DNA of 19,269 nucleotides, taken from positions 1 through 19,269 of the IMG/VR virus record IMGVR_UViG_3300029186_000016; one strand, 5' to 3'. Positions 1-14,405 of the stretch are shown here, piece by piece. The DNA is from a virus. Taxonomy: Duplodnaviria; Heunggongvirae; Uroviricota; Caudoviricetes. The notes beneath the pieces were generated by a model. The model did not search any database and was not told where the DNA came from. It saw nothing but the letters and a program-made list of their open reading frames with translations. Position 1 is the stretch's first letter. Each line of letters begins with the position of its first letter. Position numbers and translations under genes: made by a program.

Positions 1-2
1 GA

Positions 3-539
3 CTCAATGTCATCGGGTCAAAATGGCCTGATGATCTTACAGAGAATACAACAGAGATTACTACAGAGAATAAAAACACTTCTCGTCCGGAAGCTTCGCA
101 ACCGGACCCGCAGGCGGTTGAACAGGATTTTTTAACCCGACACCCTGACGCGGTTGTGTTCAGTGCAAAAAAACGCCAGTGGGGCAATCAGGAGGATTTG
201 GCGTGTGCGCAGTGGATCTGGGGACGAATCGTGAGTCTTTACGAGCAGGCCGCCAGCGATGATGGCGAGATTTCGCGACCGAAAGAACCCAACTGGACCG
301 CATGGGCCAACGACGTGCGCACAATGCGGATGCTGGATGGCAGAACTCACAGACAAATTTGTGAAATGTTTGGTCGGGCGCAGCGGGATCCATTCTGGGT
401 AAAAAATATCATGAGTCCGTCAAAGCTTCGCGGAAAATGGGATGAACTGGTTATCCGCCTGGGGCGTTCGTCTGTACAGCGTTGTGTGAATCATATTTCT
501 GAGCCGGATACCGAAATTCCGCCGGGGTTCAGGGGGTAA
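3..539 (+). CDS. Phage replication initiation / replisome-organizer protein, C-terminal part (5' end lies outside the window)
   Basis: Frame is open from position 3 with no stop until 537-539. It ends 6 nt before the DnaC-like gene, the usual initiator-loader pairing in lambdoid phages. No catalytic motif recognised; assignment is by position. Confidence 0.55.
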   Translation, partial: LNVIGSKWPDDLTENTTEITTENKNTSRPEASQPDPQAVEQDFLTRHPDAVVFSAKKRQWGNQEDLACAQWIWGRIVSLYEQAASDDGEISRPKEPNWTAWANDVRTMRMLDGRTHRQICEMFGRAQRDPFWVKNIMSPSKLRGKWDELVIRLGRSSVQRCVNHISEPDTEIPPGFRG

Positions 540-545
540 CGGGCC

Positions 546-1292
546 ATGAAAAATATCGCGGCAGGTGGTGTTCTTGAGCGTATCCGTAAGCTGACCCCGC
601 AGCATGTAATCGCGCCGTACCGGACAGTGGATGAGTGGCGCGAGTGGCAACTGGCTGAAGGGCGAAAACGTAGCGAGGAGATCAACCGCCAGAATCGCCA
701 GTTGCGGGTGGAAAAAATCCTGAATCGTTCGGGCATCCAGCCTCTGCACAGCAAATGCTCGTTTGCGAATTATCAGGTGCAGAACGACGGGCAAAAACAT
801 GCGCTGAGCCAGGCAAAATCCATCGCTGACGAACTGATGACCGGGTGCACGAATTTTGTGTTCAGCGGTAAGCCGGGTACCGGAAAGAACCACCTTGCAG
901 CCGCCATTGGCAATCATCTTCTGGCGAAAGGTCGCAGCGTGATTGTGATAACGGTGGCTGATGTGATGCTGGCGTTACACAACAGCTACGACAATAAAAA
1001 CTCAGGCGAAAAATTTTTACAGGGGTTGTGTGATGTTGACCTGCTTGTCCTGGATGAAATCGGAATGCAGCGGGATACGCGCAACGAGCAGGTCACACTG
1101 AACCAGATAGTCGACCGCAGAACTGCTTCGATGCGTAGTGTCGGAATGCTGACGAACCTGAACCACGTAGCGATGAGTACGCTTCTTGGCGAGCGTGTGA
1201 TGGACCGCATGGTCATGAACGGTGGTCGCTGGGTGAATTTTAACTGGGAGAGCTGGCGTTCGAATGTCAGACACCTGAGGGTTGTGAAGTAA
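546..1292 (+). CDS. DnaC/IstB-like AAA+ helicase loader
   Basis: Walker A GKPGTGKN and Walker B DLLVLDEIG are readable in the 248-aa translation. Sits immediately after the putative initiator gene. Confidence 0.85.
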   Translation: MKNIAAGGVLERIRKLTPQHVIAPYRTVDEWREWQLAEGRKRSEEINRQNRQLRVEKILNRSGIQPLHSKCSFANYQVQNDGQKHALSQAKSIADELMTGCTNFVFSGKPGTGKNHLAAAIGNHLLAKGRSVIVITVADVMLALHNSYDNKNSGEKFLQGLCDVDLLVLDEIGMQRDTRNEQVTLNQIVDRRTASMRSVGMLTNLNHVAMSTLLGERVMDRMVMNGGRWVNFNWESWRSNVRHLRVVK

Positions 1293-1306
1293 TTTCAGGA
1301 GGACTT

Positions 1307-1723
1307 ATGGTAAAAGTTTTTACTCCCGAACAACGGGAAGAAGTAAAGGCGCGTATTGTGGAACTGGTACGCAGAGATGGTAGGAAAACGCGTAAACAAC
1401 TGGAAAATGAAACAGGGGCGACGAGACATCTGATTGAAGTTCTGGCGAAAGAACTGGTAGACCGTGGTGTTGTATATGGTTCAGGGCATGGAATATTCCC
1501 TTCTGAGCAGGTACGTAAAGACTGGATAAAAGCCCATAAAGAGATGTCTAAAGGTGCAGCGAAAAAGAAGAGCGACCCTGGCCTGATTTATTCATTACCA
1601 GATGGAGAGATACGCCACTACGACAGGCGTCAGAACATAATCTGTCTCGAGTGCCAGAAAAGCAAGGTTATGCAGCGTGTGCTGGCATTTTATCAGGGTA
1701 ATTTTCAGGAGGTGATGGCGTGA
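1307..1723 (+). CDS. Hypothetical nin-region protein (138 aa)
   Basis: Long ORF with AGGAGG-type SD upstream (caggaggacttATG). Its stop overlaps the next start (GTGA). Basic N-terminus may bind nucleic acid; function unknown. Confidence 0.6.
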   Translation: MVKVFTPEQREEVKARIVELVRRDGRKTRKQLENETGATRHLIEVLAKELVDRGVVYGSGHGIFPSEQVRKDWIKAHKEMSKGAAKKKSDPGLIYSLPDGEIRHYDRRQNIICLECQKSKVMQRVLAFYQGNFQEVMA

Positions 1724-2016
1724 GGGTGAGGGTTTATATCGCCGGTCCAATGACGGGGTATGAAAATTTCAACCGTGAGGCGTTTCACAAGGCAGAAGAG
1801 GAACTGAAACGGGAAGGGCATACCGTTTTAAATCCGGCTGTGCTTCCGGATGGGCTGACACAGCCGCACTACATGGATATTTGCATGGCAATGATTCGTT
1901 GTGTGGATGCGATTTACATGCTGAAAGGCTGGCAGCGGTCAGCGGGCGCTAAGGCAGAGCTGGCACTGGCGGAGAAACTGGGGCATGCGGTGATTTATCA
2001 GGAGGTGGCTCAATGA
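1720..2016 (+). CDS. DUF4406-like small protein (nucleoside 2-deoxyribosyltransferase-like fold family), 98 aa
   Basis: GTG start overlapping the upstream stop. The N-terminal VYIAGPMTG motif resembles the Rossmann-like glycine loop of this family as I recall it; family call is from memory. Confidence 0.55.
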   Translation: MRVRVYIAGPMTGYENFNREAFHKAEEELKREGHTVLNPAVLPDGLTQPHYMDICMAMIRCVDAIYMLKGWQRSAGAKAELALAEKLGHAVIYQEVAQ

Positions 2017-2474
2017 GAGAGGTTAACTATGAGGCGCTTCGTGAGGCAGCACAAAACTATCAGTCGACGCTGGCGTGGTATCAGGCTATCCCGGACAGCC
2101 CAAATGCTGAACGGGATTGTGATGCGGCTCTTGCTGCGTTTAAGCGTCACATCCGTCATCGGGAAGCGGATATTATCGCTGATTTGCTGGATGGGCTGGA
2201 AGAAGCAAAATCACAACTCAACGAGCAGCGTGAGTATTACGAAGGCGTTATCTCTGATGGGAGCAAGCGTATTGCTGAACTGGAAGCGCGGGAAGTTCAA
2301 TTACCGACTCGCTACGACCTTCGATATGGACACCCGATAAATGCAGATGAGCGACATGTCATGATACCTAAAGAAAATGGCAGTTGGCTTTACCTGATTG
2401 ACCTAGAACACGCATTACGCGTCGCTGGCATTCGCATCAAAGGAGAGGAGCATGGAAATAAAACCAGAGGATGA
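2013..2474 (+). CDS. Hypothetical phage protein (153 aa)
   Basis: ATGA start/stop overlap with the upstream gene and same-strand operon context. No motif recognised. Confidence 0.55.
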   Translation: MREVNYEALREAAQNYQSTLAWYQAIPDSPNAERDCDAALAAFKRHIRHREADIIADLLDGLEEAKSQLNEQREYYEGVISDGSKRIAELEAREVQLPTRYDLRYGHPINADERHVMIPKENGSWLYLIDLEHALRVAGIRIKGEEHGNKTRG

Positions 2475-2808
2475 GTTAAGCAATATCGTTTTATTTCCGG
2501 TAAAAGAGGATGACCCTCGTAATCAGGTTAATTTTCTTTATGAGCCATCGGAAAGACCATATTGTCATCACGCCTCTGTCCGGGTTGACGAAAAAGAGCG
2601 TCAGGTCCGCTGTAAAATCTGCGGTGCAGTTGTGGAGCCATTTGACTGGATGCTCTCTGTGGCGAAAAGAGAAACCAGACTGGCAGATGATGTAAGGCTC
2701 TTGCGTCAGGAGGAGCGGGAAAGGCGAAAAAATATAGAAAAGCTAATTCAGATTGAGCGTAACGCGAAAGCGCGGATACGCAGGGCGACAAAATCCAGAA
2801 CTGAATAA
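2452..2808 (+). CDS. Hypothetical protein with putative zinc-ribbon (118 aa)
   Basis: Cys/His cluster C-HH...C-x2-C and a highly basic C-terminus. Overlaps the upstream gene by 23 nt. Confidence 0.5.
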   Translation: MEIKPEDELSNIVLFPVKEDDPRNQVNFLYEPSERPYCHHASVRVDEKERQVRCKICGAVVEPFDWMLSVAKRETRLADDVRLLRQEERERRKNIEKLIQIERNAKARIRRATKSRTE

Positions 2809-2878
2809 TTAAATTTAGCTCTGTTAAAAATTTAATCCTTAACCGGAGGGATTTCTGCACCCTCAGAACATCAGGAGG

Positions 2879-2894
2879 CCGCCCGAAAGGGCGG
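2879..2894 (+). promoter_or_regulatory. GNRA-tetraloop hairpin (CCGCCC-GAAA-GGGCGG) between the Shine-Dalgarno and the start codon of the 2902 gene
   Basis: Perfect 6-bp GC stem with a GAAA loop, directly 3' of AGGAGG (2873-2878) and 7 nt 5' of ATG 2902. Confidence 0.6.
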
Positions 2895-2901
2895 TAGTTA
2901 A

Positions 2902-3084
2902 ATGCGAAAGTTTAAAATAATTATTGAAACGGGAATAGCCGGTGGAGATTTCGAGGATGAATTCGAAGTGGATGATGATGCGACGCCTGATGAAATACAT
3001 GACGAAGCAAAAGATATTTTCTTTAACTACTGCAATTACTCATATCACGAAATAAAAGACGAAGAGGAAGAACAAAATGGCTGA
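2902..3084 (+). CDS. Small highly acidic protein (60 aa)
   Basis: ORF with AGGAGG SD separated from the ATG by the hairpin. Asp/Glu-rich composition. Its stop overlaps the next start (ATGGCTGA). Confidence 0.55.
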   Translation: MRKFKIIIETGIAGGDFEDEFEVDDDATPDEIHDEAKDIFFNYCNYSYHEIKDEEEEQNG

Positions 3085-3253
3085 TTTTGGTTCAACTAAA
3101 TACAACGTCAGTTTTGAAGAATGGCATGAACTGTTAATGGACTATGCAGAGTTACGTGGTGGCAGTGCTGCTGATGCTGAAGCATGGCGTGATGATTATG
3201 AAGCAGGAAAAACTCCGGTCGAAGCATATTGTGATGAGTGGGGCGATGAATGA
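3077..3253 (+). CDS. Small acidic protein (58 aa), missing from the ORF track because it is under 60 aa
   Basis: Hand-translated: MADFGSTKYNVSFEEWHELLMDYAELRGGSAADAEAWRDDYEAGKTPVEAYCDEWGDE. Its start overlaps the upstream stop and its stop overlaps the downstream ATG (ATGA), so it fills the gap between two coupled genes exactly. Confidence 0.5.
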   Translation: MADFGSTKYNVSFEEWHELLMDYAELRGGSAADAEAWRDDYEAGKTPVEAYCDEWGDE

Positions 3254-3765
3254 GCGAGATTAATTATCAGGAAGGGCATGAAACGGCAGGGCAGGCAAAA
3301 CCAGTTGCATGGCGATATCGCTACGTGAAAAAAGACGTTACAGACTTTCAGGGGAAGCCGTGGGCTGGTGACTGGAAATATGTACCGACAAAAGAGGATT
3401 GTAACGACAGGCCGAACTATGAAATTCAGGCCTTATTCATCGGCTCGCCAGTCCCGGTGACATCAGAAGGACTGGTTAAAGCCGTGCGCTTTTATGAACA
3501 GGTAAAGCGTGAGAATCCGCCAGTCGAAACAGGAGCATGGAAGGATGCTGTTGACTGGGTGCTCAGAGAGGCCTGCTGCGCTGCCATTCTGGGTAAAGCT
3601 GACAATCCACCAGCATCCGGCAATCAGGTTAGCGAATTAACAATGTGGGTTAAACGACTGGTCAGTCAACTGAAAAAAGCTCAGCCGGACTGCAAATTAC
3701 CGGAGAAGGCGATGGATTACCTGAAACGAAATGGACTGATAAGCGTGGAGGATGTTTTACGATGA
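3250..3765 (+). CDS. Hypothetical phage protein (171 aa)
   Basis: Translationally coupled to the upstream small ORF. No motif recognised. Confidence 0.55.
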   Translation: MSEINYQEGHETAGQAKPVAWRYRYVKKDVTDFQGKPWAGDWKYVPTKEDCNDRPNYEIQALFIGSPVPVTSEGLVKAVRFYEQVKRENPPVETGAWKDAVDWVLREACCAAILGKADNPPASGNQVSELTMWVKRLVSQLKKAQPDCKLPEKAMDYLKRNGLISVEDVLR

Positions 3766-3885
3766 ATATTTAGACTAAAGAGTTTGTAACGCTATGTAAG
3801 TGATTTTTTCTGGTTTAGATATTTATATGTCCGGCCAAATTGAGGTGTGTTTAAATGTTATTGCACATTGATTGTAGGGGGAATA

Positions 3886-4065
3886 ATGAAAAACGCATTG
3901 CAGTTTTTGTTTGTTGCGTTCTGGTTGTTCGCATCATGTATGCCCATCATCTTCACAGCAAGGTATATGGAAAAAATTGATGTTTTGATATTAATGTTTG
4001 GACATATAAATGCCCTTTTTTTAGGGGTGTTCATGGCGGTCATGTGCATTGAATACTGGCGGTAA
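3886..4065 (+). CDS. Small two-helix membrane protein (59 aa) in an AT-rich islet
   Basis: Internal ATG at 3886 preceded by a GGGGGAA SD. Two hydrophobic segments (ALQFLFVAFWLFASCMPIIF and IDVLILMFGHINALFLGVFMAVMCI). The 3847 start in the track lacks an SD. Confidence 0.45.
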   Translation: MKNALQFLFVAFWLFASCMPIIFTARYMEKIDVLILMFGHINALFLGVFMAVMCIEYWR

Positions 4066-4120
4066 ATACAGCGAACGCCATTGGTTTAGTTGGATATTTA
4101 CTGTGCCGGACAAAAACGGT

Positions 4121-4148
4121 TTGCGGGGAAATCTTAGTTAAGTAGAAT
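4121..4148 (+). promoter_or_regulatory. Candidate sigma70 promoter for the hok/mok mRNA (-35 TTGCGG, 16-bp spacer, -10 TAGAAT)
   Basis: Hexamers read directly from sequence, about 120 nt upstream of mok, consistent with the long structured leader typical of hok mRNAs. Confidence 0.3.
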
Positions 4149-4219
4149 AACTGCGGGTGCTTGAGGCTATCTGTCTCAGGCATGAACACCAAAAGGCAGA
4201 TAGAGAAAAGCCCCAGTTA

Positions 4220-4276
4220 ACATTACGCGTCCTGCAAGACGCTTAACATTAATCTGAGGCCCAATCTATGTCTCAC
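4220..4276 (-). ncRNA. Candidate Sok-like antisense RNA
   Basis: Minus-strand promoter-like hexamers inside the mok 5' end (-35 TTGCCT = plus 4306-4311, 17-bp spacer, -10 TAACCT = plus 4283-4288) would start a transcript about 9 nt into mok running antisense to the leader, as in known hok/sok loci. Contains hairpin GCGTC-n6-GACGC (plus 4227-4242). No clear U-tract terminator, so ends are uncertain. Confidence 0.3.
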
Positions 4277-4480
4277 AAATGTAGGTTAGCCTCTTACGTG
4301 CCGAAAGGCAAGGAGAAGCAGGCTATGAAGCAGCAAAAGGCGATGTTAATCGCCCTGATCGTCATCTGTTTAACCGTCATAGTGACGGCACTGGTAACGA
4401 GGAAAGACCTCTGCGAGGTACGAATCCGAACCGGCCAGATGGAGGTTGCTGTTTTCGTAGACTACGAATCTAGAGAGTAA
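4268..4480 (+). CDS. mok: mok-like reading frame (in-frame N-terminal extension of hok, 70 aa)
   Basis: ORF begins 57 nt upstream of the hok ATG in the same frame, as I recall for the chromosomal mokC/hokC and mokB/hokB pairs. Confidence 0.45.
   Translation: MSHKCRLASYVPKGKEKQAMKQQKAMLIALIVICLTVIVTALVTRKDLCEVRIRTGQMEVAVFVDYESRE
4325..4480 (+). CDS. hok: Hok/Gef-family type I toxin (51 aa)
   Basis: MKQQKAMLIALIVICLTVIVTALVTRKDLCEVRIRTGQMEVAVFVDYESRE has one N-terminal TM helix and the conserved RKDLCEV...EVA...YES signature of Hok/Gef/RelF proteins. GGAG SD upstream. Confidence 0.85.
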   Translation: MKQQKAMLIALIVICLTVIVTALVTRKDLCEVRIRTGQMEVAVFVDYESRE

Positions 4481-4488
4481 GAGTGACC

Positions 4489-4512
4489 TGGCGGGAGAGT
4501 AATCTCCCGCCA
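4489..4512 (+). other. Perfect 10-bp hairpin (TGGCGGGAGA-GTAA-TCTCCCGCCA) 9 nt after the hok stop
   Basis: Read directly. Not followed by a T-tract, so it is more likely an mRNA 3' stability or fold-back element than an intrinsic terminator. A T-rich run follows at about 4564-4579. Confidence 0.5.
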
Positions 4513-4696
4513 CCTCTGATGTGTCGGCATCCTCAACGCACCCGCACTTAACCCGCTTCGACGGTTTTTGTTTTATTTTCAATGCGTTTTAACTTTTTTA
4601 AGACACCGGATATAGAATCCAAAACACTTAAGTAGCGCGCAGGGATAAGAGGGATGGCCCCCTGAAGGGGAGAGCTAATTATCCGGAAGGATTCTG

Positions 4697-4960
4697 ATGA
4701 TGAACATCGAAGAACTGCGTAAAATTTTTTGTGAAGATGGCCTCTATGCTGTGTGCGTTGAAAATGGAAATATTGTTAGTCATTGCCGCGTTCTGTGTTT
4801 GCGAAAGAAGCAAAGAAAGAGTGGGGCTGCGTTAATTAATTTTGTGGATGCTCGGGTGACGGACGGATTTATCTTGCGCGACGATGAGTTTGCCACTTCA
4901 TTACAGGCATTGAAAGAGATCGGAATAAAAGCTGGCTTTTCTGCTTTTTCAGAAGAATAA
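4697..4960 (+). CDS. Hypothetical small protein (87 aa), positionally equivalent to the small gene next to hokD in Qin-type prophages
   Basis: ORF with GGAAGGA SD. Identity to rem not verified; the context resemblance is from memory. Confidence 0.5.
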   Translation: MMNIEELRKIFCEDGLYAVCVENGNIVSHCRVLCLRKKQRKSGAALINFVDARVTDGFILRDDEFATSLQALKEIGIKAGFSAFSEE

Positions 4961-5026
4961 ACTCATCTACAATCTTGCGCGGGGCTGAACTCCCGCTGAG
5001 TAACACCGTGCCACCGGAGAAAACCG

Positions 5027-5305
5027 ATGGCACGCAACGCAAAATATTACAATCATAATAATTCGACCGTTCTTGCCTGCACGCACGAGCGGTATCCTCA
5101 CACATTCAAATCTGACTGGTATCAGCACGACCCCTGCACCGAAGAACAGGTCGAGTGGCTGATTCAGAACTACCGCAGACGTGGGTATGAGTTTAGGAAA
5201 GCCCTCAGCCTCGATTATCGTCTCTGGATAATCTACGTCAGACTCCCTTATTCCGAACGCCCACCGCGTCCGTCCCGCACATTCCAGCAACGGATCTGGA
5301 GGTAA
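5027..5305 (+). CDS. Hypothetical protein (92 aa)
   Basis: GGAGAAAA SD before the ATG. Stop TAA 5303-5305 sits one nt before the GTG start of the DUF968 gene, suggesting coupling. Confidence 0.45.
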   Translation: MARNAKYYNHNNSTVLACTHERYPHTFKSDWYQHDPCTEEQVEWLIQNYRRRGYEFRKALSLDYRLWIIYVRLPYSERPPRPSRTFQQRIWR

Positions 5306-5306
5306 C

Positions 5307-6365
5307 GTGCGGGTATTACTTCGATCTGTTCCGGTACCGGAACTTGGGCTGGTGGTCCTTAAGCCTAGTCGTGAATCCATGCAGGTATTCCGCAGCGGTC
5401 GTGTACTGGTGGAGCCGGAACCGAAAAGCATGCGCGGTCTGCCGTCCGGAGTCGTTCCTGCCGTTCGCCAGCCATTGGCGGAGGATAAATCACTACTGCC
5501 ATTTTTCAGCGATGAGCGGGTGATTCGTGCTGCTGGCGGTGCTGGTGCGCTGTCTGACTGGCTGTTACGCCACGTTAAATCCTGCCAGTGGCCTCATGGT
5601 GACTATCATCACAGTGAAATCGTCATACATCGTTACGGTACCGGCGCGATGGTGTTGTGCTGGCACTGCGACAACCAGCTGCGTGACCAGACCTCCGAAT
5701 CACTCGGGCAACTTGCTCATCAAAACCTGTCAGCATGGATGATTGACGTCATACGCCATGCAGTGAATGGCACGCAGGAGCGGGAATTATCGCTGGCTGA
5801 ATTGTGCTGCTGGGCTTCTGTAAATGATGTAGTGGATGCCATGACCGAAAATATGGCGCGTCGAATCCTGAAGCTTCCGAGTGAAAAAATCCGCTCAGTA
5901 TACCGCGAGAGCGACATCGTACCGGGAGAGCAGACCGCCATCAGCATACTGAAGCAGCGCACAAAAAATATTGCGCCGTTGCCTCACGCCCACCAGCAAC
6001 AGAATCCACCACAGGAAAAGACGGTGGTCAGCATTGCCGTTGATCCGGAGTCACCGGCTCAGTATCTCCAGCGCCAGAAACCACAACGGGAAGATATGCC
6101 TGTATACACGCGTTGGGTAAAAACGCAGAAATGCATGACGTGTGGCAATCAGGCAGATGATCCGCATCACATCATTGGTCATGGACTGGGAGGGATGGGA
6201 ACAAAGGCTGATGATTTGTTTGTTATTCCGCTGTGCCGTAAATGCCATAGCGAACTACACGCCGGGGTAAAAGATTTTGAAGAAAAACACGGCAGCCAGC
6301 TGTTGTTGCTGATTCGTTTTTTAATGCACGCGAGAAATTCGGGTGTCCTGAAGTGGAAAGCATGA
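5307..6365 (+). CDS. DUF968-family protein (YdfU-like) with C-terminal HNH-type Cys/His motif
   Basis: C-terminal CMTCGN...HHIIGHG...CRKCHSELH is an HNH/zinc-finger-like signature. GTG start with TGGAGG SD. Precedes rusA as in lambdoid nin/recombination regions. Confidence 0.7.
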   Translation: MRVLLRSVPVPELGLVVLKPSRESMQVFRSGRVLVEPEPKSMRGLPSGVVPAVRQPLAEDKSLLPFFSDERVIRAAGGAGALSDWLLRHVKSCQWPHGDYHHSEIVIHRYGTGAMVLCWHCDNQLRDQTSESLGQLAHQNLSAWMIDVIRHAVNGTQERELSLAELCCWASVNDVVDAMTENMARRILKLPSEKIRSVYRESDIVPGEQTAISILKQRTKNIAPLPHAHQQQNPPQEKTVVSIAVDPESPAQYLQRQKPQREDMPVYTRWVKTQKCMTCGNQADDPHHIIGHGLGGMGTKADDLFVIPLCRKCHSELHAGVKDFEEKHGSQLLLLIRFLMHARNSGVLKWKA

Positions 6366-6731
6366 ATGACTGAACGCATAGAATTTGTTTTGCCTTACCC
6401 GCCAACGGTGAACACTTACTGGCGACGTCGTGGCAGCACATATTTTGTATCAAAAGCCGGTGAGCGTTATCGCCGGGATGTGGCGCTTATTGTTCGCCAG
6501 CAGCGGCTGAAATTAAACCTGTCCGGAAGGCTGGCGATAAAGATTATTGCAGAGCCACCGGATAAACGTCGTCGTGACCTGGACAATATCCTGAAAGCAC
6601 CACTGGATGCGCTGACGCATGCCGGACTTCTCATAGACGACGAGCAGTTTGATGAAATCAATATTGTGCGCGGTCAGCTCGTTCCTGGGGGGCGGCTGGG
6701 CGTGAAGATTTACAAAATTGAGAGTGAGTGA
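6366..6731 (+). CDS. rusA: Holliday-junction resolvase RusA
   Basis: The 121-aa translation carries the acidic RRRDLDNILKAPLDAL...DDEQ motifs of the RusA family. Its start overlaps the upstream stop. Confidence 0.85.
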   Translation: MTERIEFVLPYPPTVNTYWRRRGSTYFVSKAGERYRRDVALIVRQQRLKLNLSGRLAIKIIAEPPDKRRRDLDNILKAPLDALTHAGLLIDDEQFDEINIVRGQLVPGGRLGVKIYKIESE

Positions 6732-7282
6732 TCGTAAATATGATATATCCGGAAATTACAGGCAAAAGCGGCGAGCATTTACGTCTAAAAACGCTGGAAG
6801 CCGTCTGGATCCAGGGGAAATTACGGATGTGGGGGCGTTGGTCGTACATAGGTGGTGGCAAACCAGGAAATATGTTCAATCAGTTGCTGGCATCCAAAAA
6901 ACTGACAAAAACCGCAATCAATGAAGCCCTGCGTAGAATCAGGGAGTCAGGGATTGATAAACCAGAGCTGGAAGCATTCTTGCGAGAGATGATCGCTGGC
7001 AGACAGAAGAGCTGGTTGTCTCACTGTACTGATGCAGAGGCGTTACGCATTGATGGGGTGATAAGTAAAGCGCTTGCACGTTATCCTGGATTGATTGATA
7101 TCCTGCGGCAAAGGTACGAAGGGCGGGGGATGAGTAAACGCAAAATGGCTGAATTGTTGAATGAGGTTCACCCTGAGTGGTGCTATGCAACATGCCGCAA
7201 TCGTATAGATATGTGGCTGAGAATAGCTGAGTTTATTCTGTATCCACTGATGCGAGATGCATTTTCTTTTACTGACGCTTAG
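6728..7282 (+). CDS. Putative late-gene antiterminator (Q-like)
   Basis: Position immediately after rusA and before a promoter/terminator region, and a WGRW-type motif near the N-terminus as in some Q-family proteins. The true start may be the ATG at 6740. Family membership not verified. Confidence 0.55.
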   Translation: MIVNMIYPEITGKSGEHLRLKTLEAVWIQGKLRMWGRWSYIGGGKPGNMFNQLLASKKLTKTAINEALRRIRESGIDKPELEAFLREMIAGRQKSWLSHCTDAEALRIDGVISKALARYPGLIDILRQRYEGRGMSKRKMAELLNEVHPEWCYATCRNRIDMWLRIAEFILYPLMRDAFSFTDA

Positions 7283-7339
7283 AATCTGGAGGGCGTTTGT
7301 TGTTGCACGAAGAGGATTTTTGGCTGGTAGTAAGGTTTA

Positions 7340-7447
7340 TGCAGTTTTAGAAAAAAAGCTTGTATTTTTAGCCATAAACTGTTTCAATCCAGCTACGCTT
7401 CGCAAAGCTGTACCGCGAGGCGAATAGCAGACATGGACACCTGAAAG
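7340..7447 (+). promoter_or_regulatory. Candidate late promoter (PR'-like) and Q-utilisation region
   Basis: Non-coding, A/T-rich stretch between the Q-like gene and a strong intrinsic terminator. Promoter-like hexamers are present (e.g. TTGTAT at 7360-7365) but the exact -10 is ambiguous. Confidence 0.4.
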
Positions 7448-7471
7448 AACCCGCTTTATGCGGGTTTTTTT
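7448..7471 (+). terminator. Rho-independent terminator (tR'-like)
   Basis: AACCCGC-TTTAT-GCGGGTT stem followed by a T7 run. Confidence 0.75.
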
Positions 7472-7594
7472 ATGCCTGAAAAACGGCACAGAACATTAAA
7501 CGCGCTGGTAGTTGTGAATACTGGTCTTTCAGCTTGCTGGCTTTTTGGACAAGAGTTATTGGTATGTCACGTTAACCGGAAAAGGGAAAAAGGC

Positions 7595-7792
7595 ATGCTA
7601 AAACAGCAGGATATGACCGAAACCGCCAGAGTGGTGTTTAATGAATTAAGCGTCACCGAACCGGCGACCGTCGGGGAAATTGCGCAGAATACTTACCTTT
7701 CACGCGAACGTTGCCAGTTAATACTGACTCAGCTTGTTATGGCGGGTCTGGCAGATTATCAGTTCGGTTGTTACAGACGCCTTCCGCAGTGA
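7595..7792 (+). CDS. Small winged-helix/HTH DNA-binding protein (65 aa)
   Basis: Internal ATG at 7595 with GGGAAAAAGG SD. Translation contains an HTH-like stretch TVGEIAQNTYLSRERCQLILTQLVMAGL. The 7472 start begins inside the terminator T-run with no SD and is rejected. Confidence 0.5.
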   Translation: MLKQQDMTETARVVFNELSVTEPATVGEIAQNTYLSRERCQLILTQLVMAGLADYQFGCYRRLPQ

Positions 7793-7942
7793 AGGCTTTT
7801 TAATTTGTGGTAATGGGCGGCTGGTGGGTGTTAGCGGCACCTGCCAGCCATCTGCTCATGCGTTGGGGTCACAAGCAAACCTCAGGCCCATCTGCTTTGC
7901 GCAAAAGCGGTATGAGCCTATCAGAGAAGTGCTTATTGATCT

Positions 7943-8992
7943 ATGATTAATACTGTAAAAATATCCAGTTGTGAGTTAATCAACGCTGATTGCCTGGAGT
8001 TTATCCAGACCTTACCGGAAAACTCTGTCGATCTGATAGTCACAGACCCGCCATACTTTAAAGTGAAGCCCGAGGGCTGGGATAACCAGTGGAAGGGCGA
8101 CGATGATTACCTGAAATGGCTGGACCAGTGTCTGGCGCAGTTCTGGCGGGTACTGAAGCCTGCCGGAAGTCTTTACCTGTTCTGTGGTCATCGCCTGGCA
8201 TCTGACACCGAAATCATGATGCGTGAGCGCTTTAATGTGCTGAACCACATTATCTGGGCGAAGCCGTCCGGACGCTGGAACGGGTGCAATAAGGAAAGTC
8301 TGCGGGCGTATTTTCCGGCAACAGAGCGCATTCTGTTTGCAGAACATTATCAGGGACCGTATCGCCCGAAAGATGATGGCTATGTGGCACAGGGGCGCGG
8401 GCTAAAACAGCACGTCATGGCCCCGCTGATTTCTTACTTTCGTGATGCGCGTAAATCACTGGGAATAACGTCAAAACAGATAGCGGAAGCCACCGGAAAG
8501 AAAAACATGGCTTCGCACTGGTTTGGTGCCAGTCAGTGGCAGTTACCGAACGAGGGTGATTACAATAAATTGCAGGCGTTGTTTGCGCGTGTTGCGGCAG
8601 AAAAACATCAGCGCGGGGAACTGGAAAAGCCACACCACCAGCTGGTCAGCACATACAGTGAGCTGAACCGGCAGTACACGGAACTGCTGAGTGAATATAA
8701 AAATTTGCGGCGGTATTTCGGTGTGACGGCGCAGGTTCCGTACACCGATGTCTGGACGCATAAACCGGTGCAGTACTATCCAGGAAAACATCCGTGCGAA
8801 AAACCGGCAGAAATGCTGCAGCAGATAATCAACGCGAGCAGTCGTCCGGGTGACCTGGTTGCAGATTTTTTTATGGGCTCAGGTTCAACGGTAAAAGCTG
8901 CACTGGCGCTCGGGCGTCGTGCGATTGGCGTTGAACTGGAGACCGGACGTTTTGAGCAGACAGTCAGGGAAGTTCAGGATTTAATCGTTTGA
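7943..8992 (+). CDS. Beta-class DNA methyltransferase (N6-adenine or N4-cytosine)
   Basis: Motif IV DPPY (LIVTDPPY) is N-terminal and motif I FxGxG (DFFMGSGST) is C-terminal, i.e. the beta-class order. A roughly 150-aa insert with an HTH-like segment lies between them. Confidence 0.85.
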   Translation: MINTVKISSCELINADCLEFIQTLPENSVDLIVTDPPYFKVKPEGWDNQWKGDDDYLKWLDQCLAQFWRVLKPAGSLYLFCGHRLASDTEIMMRERFNVLNHIIWAKPSGRWNGCNKESLRAYFPATERILFAEHYQGPYRPKDDGYVAQGRGLKQHVMAPLISYFRDARKSLGITSKQIAEATGKKNMASHWFGASQWQLPNEGDYNKLQALFARVAAEKHQRGELEKPHHQLVSTYSELNRQYTELLSEYKNLRRYFGVTAQVPYTDVWTHKPVQYYPGKHPCEKPAEMLQQIINASSRPGDLVADFFMGSGSTVKAALALGRRAIGVELETGRFEQTVREVQDLIV

Positions 8993-9041
8993 AACGGATG
9001 ATATTGAAGAATTAATTACGCGTCGTTATTATGCGGCTCCC

Positions 9042-9117
9042 GGCCCTTTAGCTCAGTGGTGAGAGCGAGCGACTCATAATCGCCAGGTCGCTGGTTCAAA
9101 TCCAGCAAGGGCCACCA
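9042..9117 (+). tRNA. ileZ: tRNA with anticodon CAU; resembles tRNA-Ile2 (lysidine type), though Met cannot be excluded from the anticodon alone
   Basis: Cloverleaf folded by hand: acceptor GGCCCTT/AAGGGCC, D-stem GCTC/GAGC, anticodon loop CTCATAA, T-loop TTCAAAT, encoded CCA. Sequence resembles E. coli ileX as I recall it. Confidence 0.8.
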
Positions 9118-9124
9118 TCACATA

Positions 9125-9201
9125 CCGCCATTAGCTCATCAGGATAGAGCGCCAGCCTTCGAAGCTGGTTGCGCGGGGTTCGAGTCCTCGATGGCGGTCC
9201 A
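9125..9201 (+). tRNA. argN: tRNA-Arg (anticodon UCG)
   Basis: Cloverleaf folded by hand: acceptor CCGCCAT/ATGGCGG (unusual C1:G72), D-stem GCTC/GAGC, anticodon stem CCAGC/GCTGG with loop CTTCGAA, T-loop TTCGAGT, encoded CCA. Confidence 0.75.
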
Positions 9202-9214
9202 TTATCTGTACCCT

Positions 9215-9291
9215 GCGTTGTTAGCTCAGCCGGACAGAGCAATTGCCTTCTAAGCAATCGGTCACTGGTTCGAATCCAGTACAACGCGCCA
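9215..9291 (+). tRNA. argO: tRNA-Arg (anticodon UCU)
   Basis: Cloverleaf folded by hand: acceptor GCGTTGT/ACAACGC, D-stem GCTC/GAGC, anticodon stem ATTGC/GCAAT with loop CTTCTAA, T-loop TTCGAAT, encoded CCA. Confidence 0.85.
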
Positions 9292-9305
9292 CACTTATTT
9301 TCCCT

Positions 9306-9331
9306 GGCTCGCTTTTGCGGGCCTTTTTTTT
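9306..9331 (+). terminator. Rho-independent terminator after the tRNA trio
   Basis: GGCTCGC-TTTT-GCGGGCC stem (one G-U pair) followed by T8. Confidence 0.7.
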
Positions 9332-9526
9332 AAATGTCTCACAATTCAGACGGTTGACTGTTGTCTGGTTGGCGGGGAGTTTGTTAAAAGAAACTGGCAT
9401 GGTGAATCCCCCTGTGCGGAGGGGCAATCAGCGAGTAGGTATATGGGATAATCGCGGATTCAGGTGCTGGTACTGAATTCACCGGGAGGCACCCGGCACC
9501 ATGCAATGGCACATAGCGCCACTCTC

Positions 9527-9562
9527 CAGCCCCTCTCCGGAGGGGCTGTTTATATTGATTTT
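9527..9562 (+). terminator. Strong GC hairpin plus T-rich tract (plus-strand terminator; also lies 3' of the minus-strand ORF)
   Basis: Perfect 9-bp stem CAGCCCCTC-TCCG-GAGGGGCTG followed by TTTATATTGATTTT. Confidence 0.65.
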
Positions 9563-9582
9563 GTCAGATGTGAGTAAACTGC

Positions 9583-9918
9583 TTATGGACTTTGTTGTTT
9601 TAGCCCATAAGGACATATTTGCAGAGTGCAACGGTTATTAAAGCATTCATTCAATACGTTATCTGTATTTGTAGGGCATTCCTGGCTGTTTTTGATTAAA
9701 TTCCAGAATGTTTTATTGAATGGTACTACGTTGTAAATGGTTACAGGTAGCACTTTGTTATTGAGCATGATGCCTGTGTGAGTCAGTGTAAATATACTTT
9801 CAGGAGGTAAGAAAGCATCCGATTGATACCAGATTATTAATTTTATTTTACTCCATATGACTGAAAAAGATATTCCGCATGATGGCTGGATAACTGTATC
9901 AATCACAATCCACTTCAT
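9583..9918 (-). CDS. Hypothetical protein (111 aa), AT-rich cargo gene on the opposite strand
   Basis: Only long ORF in a visibly AT-rich stretch. AAGGAAA SD 6 nt upstream of the ATG on the minus strand. Stop TAA. No recognisable motif or signal peptide. Confidence 0.45.
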
Positions 9919-10163
9919 TTAGTTTCCTTGTTTATGCCTTGCTGGTGATGTTCTGAAAAGTATAAATGATATTTTTGATTGTAAACCATAGAGCAGAATT
10001 ATTTTTCTGATGTTGTTTATTGTTTATTTAAATGCAGGGTGGTTTATATCTCGTCTTGTAGTTTATCCATGCATATCTGCTTGATGATGAGGTTTTTATT
10101 TAAGGTATGGTTTTGTGTTTTTTCTGTATTACATGTCAGGTATTTTAAAGAATCATTTTTCAG

Positions 10164-12035
10164 ATGGTGGAAAGAACCATGGCATTTAAACACTATGATG
10201 TTGTCAGGGCGGCGTCGCCGTCAGATCTTGCGGAAAAGCTGACACATAAACTGAAAGAGGGCTGGCAGCCGTTTGGTAGTCCGGTGGCCATAACCCCTTA
10301 TACCCTGATGCAGGCGATTGCAGCAGAAGGTGATGTGGTCGTCAGTGGTGCAACTGAGCCGGAGTGGTACTACGTCATCGTACTGGCCGGGCAATCCAAT
10401 GCCATGGCTTACGGTGAAGGGCTTCCGCTTCCGGATTCTTACGATGCGCCCCACCCACGCATTAAGCAACTGGCCCGTCGCAACACAGTGACTCCCGGTG
10501 GTAAAGCATGCGCATTTAACGACATCATTCCGGCAGACCACTGCCTGCATGATGTTCAGGATATGAGCGCACTGAATCATCCGAAGGCAGACCTGAGCAA
10601 AGGGCAGTACGGCTGTGTCGGCCAGGGCTTACATATTGCCAAAAAACTGCTTCCGTATATCCCGAATAACGCGGGGATCCTGCTGGTACCATGCTGTCGT
10701 GGTGGTTCGGCATTCACCCAGGGCGCGGAGGGGACATTCAGTGCGGACACGGGGGCCAGCCAGGATTCGGCACGCTGGGGTGTGGGTAAACCGTTATATC
10801 AGGACCTGATCGCACGCACCAAAGCGGCATTACAGAGGAACCCGAAAAATGTGTTGCTGGCGGTGTGCTGGATGCAGGGCGAATTTGACATGAGCGCTGC
10901 CACCTACGCACAGCAACCGGACCTGTTCACGGCCATGCTGAAGCAGTTCCGTACTGACCTTTCCGGATTTAACGCGCAGTGCCATGGCGGCAGTGCTGCA
11001 GTTGTACCGTGGATTTGTGGCGACACGACGTATTACTGGAAAAACACATACGGCACACAGTATGACTCCGTCTACGGCGCGTACAAAAACAGGGAGAGCG
11101 ACAACGTTTTCTTTGTGCCGTTCATGACCGACGGTAACGGCAACAACACGCCCACCAACTTACCGGCAGAAGACCCGGATATTGCTGATGCAGGTTATTA
11201 CGGCGCGCAATCCCGTAGTAATGGTAATTGGGTATCATCAAATCGCCCGACGCATTTCAGCTCATGGGCGCGTCGTGGCATTATTCCCGATCGTATGGCA
11301 ACTGCTATTCTGAACGTAGCCGGTCGCACCTTAGCCTTCATTAGTGGTAAGGCACCGGAAATCAAACCCTCGCCCGGCGGCGACACTCCATCGGGGCCGT
11401 CTGATGGTGACACATCCGTTCGTACAGTCTCCCTGCTGCCGACAGCCGGAGAGGCTGCTGCGCAGGGCTGGACCATCACCGGCGGCAGTGTTGCGCTGGA
11501 AGATGGTGTGTTTAAGGTTACCAAGCAGAGCAATAAAACCTGGTCCCTGATGCATCCGGTGGATGACGCAGTCTCCCTGCTGACACGGGGTGGCAGACTG
11601 AGCTGTAAGTTTCGACTGTCAGGCGCACTGACCAACAACCAGTTCGGTCTGGGAATTTATCTGTATACCGATGTAGCGTTACCTGACGTCGTGGCGATGA
11701 CCGGGACTGGTAACCCGTTCCTGATGTCGTTCTTCACCCAGACCACAGACGGCAAACTGAATCTGATGCATCACAGGAAAGCAGGAAACACAAAGTTGGG
11801 CGAGTTCGGGAATTACAGTAACGACTGGCAGACGCTGGAGCTGGTGTTCACCGCCGGCAGTGCCACGGTTACTCCGAAACTGAATGGAGTGGCTGGCCCG
11901 GCATTCCAGGTCATAAAAGACAGTCTGACACTGGGGCTGAATGCGCTGACGCTGACGGATATTACCAAAAATGCAGCGTATGGCGTTGAGATAGAAAGTC
12001 TGGTGCTGGAGATAAATGCACCGGCATCATCATAA
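10164..12035 (+). CDS. nanS-p: Prophage sialate O-acetylesterase (NanS-p-like; SGNH/SASA esterase core)
   Basis: VIVLAGQSNAMAYGEG carries the GQSN catalytic-serine motif of the SASA/DUF303 esterase domain. Size of about 620 aa and position between the tRNAs and the lysis genes match what I recall for nanS-p of EHEC prophages. The start could instead be the ATG at 10179. Confidence 0.75.
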   Translation: MVERTMAFKHYDVVRAASPSDLAEKLTHKLKEGWQPFGSPVAITPYTLMQAIAAEGDVVVSGATEPEWYYVIVLAGQSNAMAYGEGLPLPDSYDAPHPRIKQLARRNTVTPGGKACAFNDIIPADHCLHDVQDMSALNHPKADLSKGQYGCVGQGLHIAKKLLPYIPNNAGILLVPCCRGGSAFTQGAEGTFSADTGASQDSARWGVGKPLYQDLIARTKAALQRNPKNVLLAVCWMQGEFDMSAATYAQQPDLFTAMLKQFRTDLSGFNAQCHGGSAAVVPWICGDTTYYWKNTYGTQYDSVYGAYKNRESDNVFFVPFMTDGNGNNTPTNLPAEDPDIADAGYYGAQSRSNGNWVSSNRPTHFSSWARRGIIPDRMATAILNVAGRTLAFISGKAPEIKPSPGGDTPSGPSDGDTSVRTVSLLPTAGEAAAQGWTITGGSVALEDGVFKVTKQSNKTWSLMHPVDDAVSLLTRGGRLSCKFRLSGALTNNQFGLGIYLYTDVALPDVVAMTGTGNPFLMSFFTQTTDGKLNLMHHRKAGNTKLGEFGNYSNDWQTLELVFTAGSATVTPKLNGVAGPAFQVIKDSLTLGLNALTLTDITKNAAYGVEIESLVLEINAPASS

Positions 12036-12120
12036 AAAGTGAGCCAGTCAAATGGAAGGTATCGTTAAACTCACCGGTAGTGTCAGTGGGTCGTCTGAGA
12101 TGCCTGCATGAGTTATCAGA

Positions 12121-12150
12121 GCCATCAGTACTTAACTGGTGGCTTTTTTT
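12121..12150 (+). terminator. Rho-independent terminator between nanS-p and the holin gene
   Basis: GCCATCAG-TACTTAA-CTGGTGGC stem (one G-U pair) followed by T7. Confidence 0.7.
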
Positions 12151-12185
12151 ATTGTTGTCAGCTTCCGGATAACGGGAGACGGGGT

Positions 12186-12401
12186 ATGTACCAGATGGAA
12201 AAAATCACAACAGGTGTGTCATACACCACGTCAGCGGTGGGAACGGGCTACTGGTTCCTGCAGTTGCTGGACAGGGTTTCCCCGTCTCAGTGGGCGGCAA
12301 TAGGCGTGCTGGGGAGTCTGCTGTTTGGGTTGCTGACATATCTGACTAACCTGTATTTCAAAATCAGAGAGGACCGTCGTAAGGCGGCGCGGGGAGAGTA
12401 A
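12186..12401 (+). CDS. S: Holin, phage-21 S-type pinholin with dual start (Met1 and Met4)
   Basis: [10 protein letters not shown]...[40 protein letters not shown] closely resembles the S21 pinholin as I recall it. GGAGACGGGG SD before ATG 12186, with a second ATG at 12195. The track's 12108 start runs through the terminator and is rejected. Confidence 0.8.
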
Positions 12402-12405
12402 AGCG

Positions 12406-12750
12406 ATGAAGAAAAAATACGAACTGGTTGTTAAAGGGATAAATAATTACCCGAATAAGATTACTGTTACTGTGGCACTGGAAATTGGTGGGTATCCGTC
12501 ACTGTTGTTGCCAGATGTGGCGATTAGTCTTGACCGTACTGAAGATGCCACGCTGGAGTTTTACGAAGCTGAGGCGAAAAAGCAGGCGAAGCAGTTTTTC
12601 ATGGATGTTGCTGCCGGGTTATGTGAAGGGGATGGTCCGTTGCCGGAAAAGCGCCCCGTAATTTTAGAGGCGCAGGATGTGTTGATAACCTACAGAGGAA
12701 AACTACCGGGAATAATTACTGGTTCTCTGAAGACTCCACCGCTGGCCTGA
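12406..12750 (+). CDS. Hypothetical protein inserted between holin and endolysin (YdfR/DUF1327-like position), 114 aa
   Basis: ORF starts 5 nt after the holin stop and ends about 50 nt before the endolysin. A gene in this position exists in Qin-type prophages as I recall; identity not verified. Confidence 0.5.
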   Translation: MKKKYELVVKGINNYPNKITVTVALEIGGYPSLLLPDVAISLDRTEDATLEFYEAEAKKQAKQFFMDVAAGLCEGDGPLPEKRPVILEAQDVLITYRGKLPGIITGSLKTPPLA

Positions 12751-12800
12751 AGACTTAACATATCCAGGGATTTGAAATCGATAAACCCTGATAAATATCC

Positions 12801-13334
12801 ATGAACACCAAAATCAAATACGGCCTGTCGGCTGCCGTTCTGGCGCTGATTGCCGCAGGTGCGCCTGCGCCTGAAATCCTCGACCAGTTTCTGGATGAAA
12901 AGGAAGGTAACCACACCACGGCATACCGTGATGGCGCGGGTATCTGGACCATCTGCCGCGGTGCCATCCTGGTGGATGGCAAACCTGTCGTTCCGGGCAT
13001 GAAGTTGTCGAAGGAAAAATGCGACCGGGTTAACGCCATTGAGCGTGATAAGGCGCTGGCATGGGTGGAGAAAAACATCAGAGTGCCATTGAGTGAACCC
13101 CAGAAAGCGGGGATCGCGTCATTCTGTCCGTACAACATTGGCCCCGGTAAGTGTTTTCCGTCGACGTTTTATAAACGAATTAATGCAGGTGATCGCAGGG
13201 GAGCGTGTGAGGCGATTCGCTGGTGGATTAAGGACGGTGGCAGAGACTGCCGTATTCGCTCAAATAACTGTTACGGTCAGGTATCCCGTCGTGACCAGGA
13301 GAGCGCGCTGGCGTGCTGGGGAATCGACAGATAA
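12801..13334 (+). CDS. R: Endolysin, T4-lysozyme-like muramidase with N-terminal signal-anchor-release (SAR) segment
   Basis: Gly/Ala-rich weakly hydrophobic N-terminus (YGLSAAVLALIAAGAPAP) followed by the E-x8-D-x5-T catalytic spacing (EKEGNHTTAYRDGAGIWT). Pairing with a pinholin is expected for SAR endolysins. Confidence 0.8.
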   Translation: MNTKIKYGLSAAVLALIAAGAPAPEILDQFLDEKEGNHTTAYRDGAGIWTICRGAILVDGKPVVPGMKLSKEKCDRVNAIERDKALAWVEKNIRVPLSEPQKAGIASFCPYNIGPGKCFPSTFYKRINAGDRRGACEAIRWWIKDGGRDCRIRSNNCYGQVSRRDQESALACWGIDR

Positions 13335-13428
13335 GCAGAATATTTTGCTAATCAATGACGTTGGCCAAGGCGGACGGATAACACGAAATCCTGCGAACTG
13401 GCAAAATGTAAGTGAATAAAAGTAAAAA

Positions 13429-13463
13429 CCCCGTTTGTTGGCTGCAAGCGGGGTTTTGTGTTT
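13429..13463 (+). terminator. Rho-independent terminator-like hairpin downstream of the endolysin
   Basis: 9-bp stem CCCCGTTTG/CAAGCGGGG (one G-U pair) with a 7-nt loop, followed by TTTTGTGTTT. Confidence 0.55.
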
Positions 13464-13532
13464 CCTGACTCTGGAAAAGTCAAAGGAGAAAGTGTGTTTG
13501 ATTTTAGCAAACTGATTCGGGAGATTCGAGTG

Positions 13533-13631
13533 ATGGCTGAAAAATTATCCACCTGGAAGTTCATTCTTATCTGGCTGGTGTTTGTGATTATGGCCTCCGG
13601 TTATTTCATCGGTCAGATACGCTGGTGGTGA
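13533..13631 (+). CDS. Hydrophobic mini-ORF (32 aa) between endolysin and Rz
   Basis: Hand-translated: MAEKLSTWKFILIWLVFVIMASGYFIGQIRWW, a single predicted TM helix. GGAGA SD about 9 nt upstream. Its stop TGA overlaps the region of the Rz ATG (TGAAATG). Under the track's length cutoff. Confidence 0.35.
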   Translation: MAEKLSTWKFILIWLVFVIMASGYFIGQIRWW

Positions 13632-13632
13632 A

Positions 13633-14100: not shown

Positions 14101-14353
14101 GTTTTGCTGATGCGCGGTATTGTCGCCGTATCCCCGCATTAACAGAGACCGCAGCCCGACCGGGAGACTCCTCTGCGCGAGTGTGCGGGGATAATCAAAA
14201 ACGATACACACCGGGGTTTACCGCGTTAACGGAGCGCGGCGTTGTCCCCTCATAGTCGCCTGTCCGGTGCGATGGTGGAAGAAACCGGACTACATTGAAA
14301 ATGATAACCATTATCATTTTTGCGGGTCCTTTCCGGCGATCCGGGCCGTTACG

Positions 14354-14365: not shown

Positions 14366-14405
14366 CGCGGGTTTTCGCTATTTATGAAAATTTTCCGGGG
14401 AAAAT

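Follow-up and report, generated by a model that had tools for sequence, protein, structure and literature searches.

The 59-codon open reading frame that lies a short distance upstream of hok in a lambdoid prophage, here called ORF59, is very probably, on comparative sequence evidence, a true gene, coding for a tiny membrane protein with two helices. We consider it likely that ORF59 is a genuine gene missing from RefSeq, that its product is a 59-residue helical hairpin of the inner membrane, and that it represents an unnamed family of two lineages (referred to here as type A, which includes ORF59, and type B) confined to Escherichia and Shigella. The family is absent from RefSeq and from all of the family libraries that we searched. 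It is of a familiar kind, the phage-borne small membrane accessory proteins, and not a new system.

The window, by which we mean the whole stretch of DNA analyzed (19,269 nucleotides, positions 1 to 19,269 of IMG/VR record IMGVR_UViG_3300029186_000016), is a lambdoid prophage. Upstream of ORF59 it encodes a DnaC/IstB-like replication protein (546..1292), a DUF977 protein, an Ead/Ea22 protein, several small ORFs, and a PHROG-660 protein. From ORF59 onward, the order is hok/sok, a Rem-like ORF, DUF968 (5307..6365), RusA (6366..6731), and a Q-like antiterminator (6728..7282), after which come a DNA methylase, a DUF1737/SASA esterase, a P21-type holin, lysozyme, terminase, and portal. ORF59 has the replication genes on one side and Q on the other and shares their strand, which is an early-right (nin-type) placement, and this gene order bears out an earlier reading of the window from its letters alone (the sequence-only reading), which had put ORF59 between nin-type early genes and the hok leader. 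The ORF59 stop codon is 90 nt before the start of the match to RF01794 (sok), which we take as the approximate 5' end of the hok mRNA. The 3' end of the PHROG-660 gene is a mosaic junction, with the homology of relatives beginning at ~3619 or ~3730. These two starting points fall within the last 12 to 50 codons of the gene, and that C-terminal stretch is common to the unrelated PHROG families 660, 924, 8171, and 30109, a typical in-gene mosaic junction.

ORF59 runs from an ATG at 3886 to a TAA at 4063-4065 (3886..4065, plus strand) and encodes 59 residues: MKNALQFLFVAFWLFASCMPIIFTARYMEKIDVLILMFGHINALFLGVFMAVMCIEYWR. Kyte-Doolittle analysis revealed two hydrophobic segments (residues ~4 to 25 and ~33 to 55; GRAVY of +1.2) separated by the sequence RYMEKID, and AlphaFold2, run on a small alignment, predicted helices at residues 2 to 27 and 30 to 58 with a mean pLDDT of 76.5. 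The C terminus is merely EYWR, without the charged cytoplasmic tail typical of holins. The sequence-only reading had described just such a 59-codon frame with its own Shine-Dalgarno sequence and two hydrophobic helices, and the sequence, the hydropathy profile, and the structure prediction all agree with it. That reading had also placed ORF59 and hok together in one AT-rich islet, which holds for the ORF59 side (34 to 38% GC across 3700-4100) but not for the hok locus (45 to 52% GC). Coordinates of the features in this part of the window are collected in Table 1.

Table 1. Features of the window around ORF59
Feature	Position	Strand	Remarks
PHROG 660 gene, 171 aa, no assigned function	3250..3765	+	early-region gene upstream of ORF59
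AT-rich spacer 5' of ORF59	3766..3885	+	without a consensus sigma-70 promoter; aligns to type B only with heavy gapping
Shine-Dalgarno AGGGGG	3876..3881	+	4 nt 5' of the ORF59 ATG
ORF59	3886..4065	+	codes for a predicted two-pass membrane protein of 59 aa; represents type A of the unnamed family, which has two members
Helix 1 of ORF59 (residues ~4-25)	3895..3960	+	hydropathy, AlphaFold2
Helix 2 of ORF59 (residues ~33-55)	3982..4050	+	hydropathy, AlphaFold2
T7 run inside helix 2 of ORF59	4016..4022	+	
Spacer, ORF59 stop to left edge of hok module	4066..4107	+	~65-70% identical to type B over ~22-45 nt
Region 5' of hok mRNA, presumed hok promoter (placement inferred)	4108..4154	+	left end of portable hok module
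hok mRNA leader and Sok target	4155..4330	+	Rfam RF01794, 120 bits
mok frame, overlaps hok	starts 4268		
hok toxin CDS, 51 aa	4325..4480	+	PF01848, clear member

We assessed how widely this DNA occurs and how it is annotated. The 389-bp stretch from 3766 to 4154 is present in 1,585 of 5,426 complete E. coli genomes, in all of them at 95% identity or higher, and the exact ORF59 protein is encoded on at least 1,000 contigs; E. coli ATCC 25922 is one of the type-A carriers. RefSeq (PGAP) places no annotation under ORF59 in any of the records listed or inspected, while some GenBank and UniProt entries carry it as a "membrane protein" or "hypothetical protein" (A0A0J2DWW3_ECOLX). Type-B DNA is found, likewise unannotated, in ~1,045 complete E. 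coli genomes, and the main type-B protein cluster (P0088) is an intact 59-aa protein on at least 1,000 contigs; E. coli 83972 is among the type-B carriers. Counting both types, as many as about half of complete E. coli genomes appear to carry this conserved gene for a small membrane protein (~1,585 and ~1,045 of 5,426, respectively; some genomes may carry both). Two kinds of label were encountered over the ORF59 region in public phage records: an antisense ORF in Escherichia phage PhiR42_1 (locus L251, 2407..2658, minus strand) and the name "hornerin" (ON470619 and ON470612 are listed for artifactual annotations). Both appear to be artifacts, given that type B does not keep the antisense frame open.

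Searches for relatives beyond these two types gave little. No entry in Pfam, PHROG, NCBIfam, PADLOC, or the PDB sequence set matched ORF59; PADLOC returned 0 families at an E value of ≤10, and the PHROGs likewise returned 0. The lone marginal match was that of TIGR03647 to type B (E = 0.031), which is below that model's cutoff and probably compositional. When the AlphaFold2 hairpin was compared with BFVD using Foldseek, nothing was found at an E value of ≤0.001, and the only matches were generic helical hairpins; together with the PADLOC and PHROG results, this led us to reject ORF59 as a catalogued defense or exclusion protein. All that a word-indexed protein search returned were copies from E. 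coli and Shigella with over 75% identity to ORF59, along with truncated or fused variants. We also looked for a third lineage by profile search, in GTDB genomes, and in metagenomes, and recovered nothing other than types A and B and a single degraded copy of type A (L205), in which a 1-nt deletion breaks the frame; tblastn against plasmids and phages gave the same two types only. Literature searches for the ORF59 peptide found nothing, and those combining hokD with small membrane proteins found nothing relevant. Given that RefSeq and the family libraries omit it, ORF59 is invisible to pan-genome, defense-island, and small-protein surveys.

The existence of the frame is not in itself telling: an ATG-started ORF of at least 59 aa is present in 19% of dinucleotide shuffles of 3766-4154 (P ~ 0.19). 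The length of ORF59 is thus within chance, and the case for a gene depends on comparative evidence. Such evidence came from a homology search, a check that the sequence-only reading had proposed. Using phmmer against 1.84 billion representative proteins, we recovered, besides near-identical copies, only three proteins (P0037, P0038, and P0039; 41 to 45% identical). One of these, P0037, is exactly 59 aa long, is 44% identical to ORF59, and matches it from residue 1 to residue 59; it defines type B, a diverged homologue whose frame is conserved. The two coding sequences have 59 codons each, share their start and stop positions, and align over 180 nt without a gap at 59% nucleotide identity, whereas the upstream flanks can be aligned only with many gaps. 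The N termini (MKN in type A and MRK in type B) align at the ATG, which is preceded by AGGGA in type B; in type A, the Shine-Dalgarno site at 3876-3881 reads AGGAGG in many relatives, including the common "IFGY" haplotype. A 72-aa version of ORF59 started by the GTG at 3847 was rejected, as the extension seems not to be conserved in type B, where (in L206) the frame of the upstream ATG hits a stop and is out of frame with the ATG of the type-B gene (ORF-B). An antisense 63-aa ORF (3858..4049, minus strand) was rejected as well, since it contains 2 stops in type B.

To evaluate the frame, we compared the 73 differences between types A and B with a null model in which the same 73 substitutions were re-placed randomly on sites with the same original base (20,000 trials). 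The differences fall at codon positions 1, 2, and 3 in numbers of 25, 18, and 30, a skew that is not significant alone (chi-square test, P ~ 0.2). By the Nei-Gojobori method (NG86), pN is 0.34 and pS is 0.70, giving a dN/dS of 0.23 in the ORF59 frame compared to 0.49 and 1.1 in the shifted frames. The start, stop, length, and reading frame have outlasted synonymous change that has reached saturation, and the amino acid replacements between the two types are conservative. Under random re-placement, the frame stayed open in only 2.1% of trials (P = 0.021). Among the open trials, the number of identical residues was 18.9 ± 2.5, compared to 26 observed (P = 0.002); the BLOSUM62 score was 76 ± 16, compared to 154 observed, a value that was never reached and lies ~4.7 standard deviations out; and the hydropathy correlation was 0.51 ± 0.09, compared to 0.72 observed. 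Of the six frames, +0 alone is open in both types, and it has by far the best protein score. Type B was discovered via a protein database, which biases its ascertainment toward intact frames, but the joint improbability is far too small for a handful of unseen broken copies to explain. With only two lineages, all of the evolutionary evidence amounts to one pairwise comparison, and from this comparison we conclude that the ORF59 frame was, as far as the sequences indicate, under purifying selection at the protein level for most of the divergence between A and B.

The type-B locus itself is a remnant. Its order is ttcA, an integrase fragment, a DUF1627 fragment, ORF-B, a 3' remnant of hok (E = 2e-6, with an internal stop), a pseudogenized ABC permease, and uspF. 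In E. coli APEC E18006 (serotype O1:K1:H7; L208, 4213..6399, between ttcA and uspF), it is a heavily decayed lambdoid remnant with an intact ORF-B and a frameshifted metal ABC permease. The remnant occupies the Rac attachment region in ~1,045 genomes.

Twenty columns are invariant between the two lineages, and they outline how the protein may work. In helix 1, they include L5, L8, W13, S17, C18, P20, I21, I22, and T24 (S17-C18-x-P20-I-I-x-T24); in helix 2, they include L36, F38, G39, N42, A43, L44, and G47 (L36-x-F38-G39-x-x-N42-A43-L44-x-x-G47); and E56-x-W58-R59 is also invariant. On one face of helix 2, the small residues G39, A43, and G47 line up at positions i, i+4, and i+8. The gene would be transcribed by read-through with the delayed-early operon, as suggested by the failure of a promoter and terminator scan to find anything for ORF59 on either strand, although the scan also missed the hok promoter and so is insensitive. 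Translation would start from the gene's own Shine-Dalgarno sequence, and the protein is predicted to insert so that its N and C termini face the cytoplasm and a short loop reaches the periplasm. Charges in type B are +2 at the N terminus (R2 and K3) and -2 in the loop (E26 and E30). The protein may then act through the packing face G39-A43-G47, flanked by H40 and N42, and through the polar cluster S17, C18, P20, and T24 of helix 1. Both elements would lie in the half of each helix nearer the periplasm, and this placement suggests that the helices pack tightly, either among copies of the protein or against a different membrane protein. We tentatively suggest, from these sequence features, that ORF59 could serve the phage as an accessory factor in the membrane, modulating a process there such as exclusion or the homeostasis of the envelope or of ions.

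The closest known parallels are small nin-region and moron accessory proteins of lambdoid phages, for example the products of the lambda nin ORFs, and inner-membrane exclusion proteins that phages encode (T4 Imm, lambda SieB). ORF59 has in common with them an early-right location between the replication genes and Q, small size, AT richness, mosaicism, a predicted inner-membrane location, and temperate E. coli phages as carriers, but neither its sequence nor a profile search links it to any of them (PHROG, Pfam, NCBIfam, and PADLOC all gave no match). Bacterial small membrane proteins missed by annotation form a class that has been reviewed (PMC12648545). Members of that class resemble ORF59 in being shorter than 60 aa, hydrophobic, omitted by pipelines, and recognizable only by comparative or ribosome-profiling evidence; they are mostly single-helix, core-genome-encoded regulators of transporters or kinases, whereas ORF59 has two predicted helices and is phage borne.

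A membrane-damaging role is the first alternative to consider. According to this explanation, ORF59 is a second toxin, a viroporin, or a pinholin-like pore that oligomerizes via G39-A43-G47 and dissipates the membrane potential alongside Hok, as part of a composite killer or abortive-infection device. The predicted two-helix hairpin of holin-like size would fit, as would the invariant small-residue face with the polar residues H40 and N42 next to it; oligomeric channels, the S21 pinholin among them, typically have glycine-zipper-like faces of this sort. ORF59 also adjoins hok in both lineages. Class II holins such as pinholin S21 (PF04971) likewise have two transmembrane helices, fewer than 100 residues, and a small-residue face on helix 2. 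ORF59 differs from them in having no profile match, no charged C-terminal tail, and a location outside the lysis cassette. We rejected it as a P21-type holin because it does not match PF04971, has an hhalign probability of only 0.1% against the window's own holin, and lacks the charged tail, and as a lysis-cassette holin because it is in the wrong location, upstream of Q. The phage has its own S21-type holin (PF04971, 12108..12401), which sits with the lysozyme gene (12801..13334) in a lysis cassette ~8 kb downstream of ORF59. Nor does ORF59 qualify as a Hok/Gef protein, for it has no PF01848 match at an E value of ≤1 (Pfam), an hhalign probability of 1.8%, and two predicted helices. Hok/Gef proteins are also small hydrophobic membrane peptides, and hok is adjacent to ORF59 on the same strand, but they have a single helix and a conserved, Cys-containing periplasmic tail, and we detected no mok-like leader frame, fold-back mRNA, or Sok-like RNA for ORF59. 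Rfam gave no antisense RNA in 3766-4154, and the insensitive promoter and terminator scan gave no signal on either strand, that could supply an antidote. Furthermore, ORF59 is intact in remnants stripped of phage regulation, which sits poorly with an unregulated toxin, unless the gene is silent in them, and this persistence argues mildly against a potent toxin. On balance, we regard a pore or toxin as unlikely.

The integrity of ORF59 across its relatives bears on the remaining alternatives. An intact 59-aa product is encoded in 196 of 198 IMG/VR locus entries (two sets sharing contigs, found with an anchor in the N-terminal half), and the frame is ungapped and full length in 221 of the 231 loci examined; the sequence-only reading had named lack of conservation as a ground for refuting its proposal, and these counts speak against such a lack. 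ORF59 is intact even in the most divergent complete-genome copies (96.9 to 97.9% identical), although the upstream gene in these copies carries the RefSeq label "frameshifted; internal stop" and hok in UMNK88 has given way to an ISNCY element. In about one-fourth of the distinct type-A loci, an IS sits exactly at the hok ATG and the hok CDS is gone, with ORF59 unchanged. This arrangement resembles the IS-linked inactivation of the K-12 chromosomal hok loci. Examples of an ISNCY-family IS at the hok start (window position 4326), followed by a FlxA-like gene, are found in L091 (~9290 onward), L254 (1232..1586), and L251 (3015..4328).

Broken or altered forms of ORF59 do occur. Frameshifted variants in public protein sets (55 aa and 83 to 84 aa) diverge at or near the T7 run at 4016-4022; the 55-aa variant ends in ...GVHGGHVH, the 83- to 84-aa variants read into the next frame, and both could reflect either slippage or sequencing errors. 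A 92-aa variant (P0002) reads past the stop at 4063-4065, and several chimeric products break at approximately residues 23 to 45. Truncations at mosaic junctions are also seen.

Within the lineages, the polymorphism tells a different story from the divergence between them. All 13 polymorphic sites are nonsynonymous: 9:0 in type A (A16V, I31V, M37I, H40Y, A43V, V48G, V52G, M53T, and Y57C) and 4:0 in type B, so that there is no excess of synonymous over nonsynonymous variants (0:13). At the same loci, hok has a synonymous-to-nonsynonymous ratio of 9:13, the upstream gene one of 5:10, and a 92-aa gene farther downstream one of 42:38. A 13:0 outcome has a probability of ~0.06 under neutrality with ~20% synonymous sites and would be very unlikely at the ratio of the neighboring genes. 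It argues for selection on the protein that is, to judge by these sequences, relaxed or diversifying at present, and it is compatible with a loss of constraint in grounded prophages, with recent variants that are slightly deleterious, with diversifying selection, or with a small number of sequencing errors. Variant density is low across the whole of 3750-4250 (~5 per 100 nt, compared to 16.5 in the hok leader), and the block therefore looks recently spread.

One way to take these data is that ORF59 is a domesticated phage membrane protein that diversifies through contact with incoming phages or the host envelope, making it a new two-helix exclusion or defense family historically coupled to hok/sok. 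The basis for such a proposal is that ORF59 is intact in grounded remnants whose hok and neighboring phage genes have decayed and that 13 of 13 polymorphisms are nonsynonymous. We give it little credence.

Another explanation is that ORF59 is spurious: a T-rich noncoding spacer 5' of hok that is open by accident, with its conservation due to recent descent or to hitchhiking with hok. The plus strand around ORF59 is indeed T-rich (AT skew of about -0.23), and hydrophobic codons come free on a T-rich strand, so that the look of a membrane protein would follow from T-rich codons encoding hydrophobic residues. The explanation also draws on the nonsignificant ORF length (P = 0.19), the lack of a RefSeq call in all of the records listed or inspected, the phage record that annotates an antisense ORF instead, the 9 nonsynonymous and 0 synonymous type-A variants, as expected without protein constraint, and the low diversity, which spans the whole 3750-4250 block and not ORF59 alone. 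What it does not accommodate is type B, which at 59% nucleotide identity still has exactly 59 codons, begins and ends at the same positions, and shows no indel; a frame that chance would seldom leave open (P = 0.021); a protein similarity 4.7 standard deviations above random placement; the lowest dN/dS in the ORF59 frame; and the breakage of all other frames, including the antisense frame, in type B. A structured-RNA alternative is weak: the folding z-scores are -2.06 on the plus strand and -0.68 on the minus strand, and Rfam has no family in 3766-4154, the downstream sok/hok matches being the sole ones. We therefore rejected the region as a known RNA. In light of the comparison with type B, we find a spurious ORF quite improbable and retain the genuine membrane protein gene as the preferred explanation.

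The relationship of this gene to hok appears to be one of long neighborhood without obligate dependence. The order ORF then hok is present in both lineages, and its presence in the deeply diverged type B indicates that it is the older arrangement. In the Sakai prophage Sp11, homology to the window begins only at 4108, and a different gene (ECs_2199) lies upstream of a complete hok module. ORF59 and hok are thus separable modules, contrary to the single shared insertion assumed in the sequence-only reading. In K-12 Qin, homology begins only at 4311, and just 14 nt upstream of the hok ATG are kept, which indicates that relBE took the place of both ORF59 and the promoter, leader, and Sok region of hok. 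Two distinct mosaic breakpoints are therefore seen to the left of hok, at 4311 (K-12 Qin) and at 4108 (Sakai Sp11). In keeping with this, relBE has been described as having integrated later, cutting short the ancestral hokD/mok frame (PMC6379469). The suggestion that ORF59 is replacement cargo for relBE must accordingly be reversed, given the 4311 junction, the published account, and the type-B order: relBE is the later insertion in K-12. The local history is corrected in that ORF59 followed by hok is the older order and the textbook K-12 relBE-hokD arrangement is derived. Separately, in L026, ~1.26 kb (~2693..3957) is inserted between the ORF59 stop and the hok promoter, at the equivalent of window position ~4078, and in L128 homology simply ends at the equivalent of that position.

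That ORF59 works together with Hok, whether by tempering it in the membrane as an immunity or modulator protein or as a helper that Hok requires for its action, could be read from the order kept across the deep A-B split and from the single low-diversity block formed by ORF59 and the 5' part of the hok locus, but we judge it very unlikely, because hok modules exist without ORF59 in Sp11 (from 4108) and K-12 Qin (from 4311), hok-like loci occur in all 5,426 genomes (median of 4 per genome) compared to 1,585 for ORF59, ORF59 is intact where hok is deleted or IS replaced, and hok is controlled by the Sok antisense RNA with no protein needed. The survival of ORF59 where hok has been destroyed makes an obligate partnership with Hok in particular unlikely. 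Taken with its location and its lack of match to holins, these observations hint that ORF59 is neither the phage's holin nor an obligate Hok partner.

As a probable membrane protein gene, ORF59 is a concrete candidate among the growing set of phage-borne small membrane proteins. It adjoins a classic hok/sok killer locus, and so its role bears on the use that prophages make of hok/sok; its confinement to one species group makes its wider significance moderate.

Two further ORFs downstream of hok drew our attention. The 87-aa ORF at 4697..4960 (plus strand) is the positional counterpart of the Qin "protein Rem" (annotated in L001 and in K-12). PHROG 340 is its only match, none being found in Pfam or NCBIfam, and few of the fetched loci have its sequence class (7 full-length matches). 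Between this Rem-like gene and DUF968 is the 92-aa ORF (5027..5305, plus strand) whose 42 synonymous and 38 nonsynonymous variants are given above. Of these 80 variants, 45 are at codon position 3, and this third-position-rich polymorphism indicates that the 92-aa ORF, despite having no family match, is clearly a real gene.
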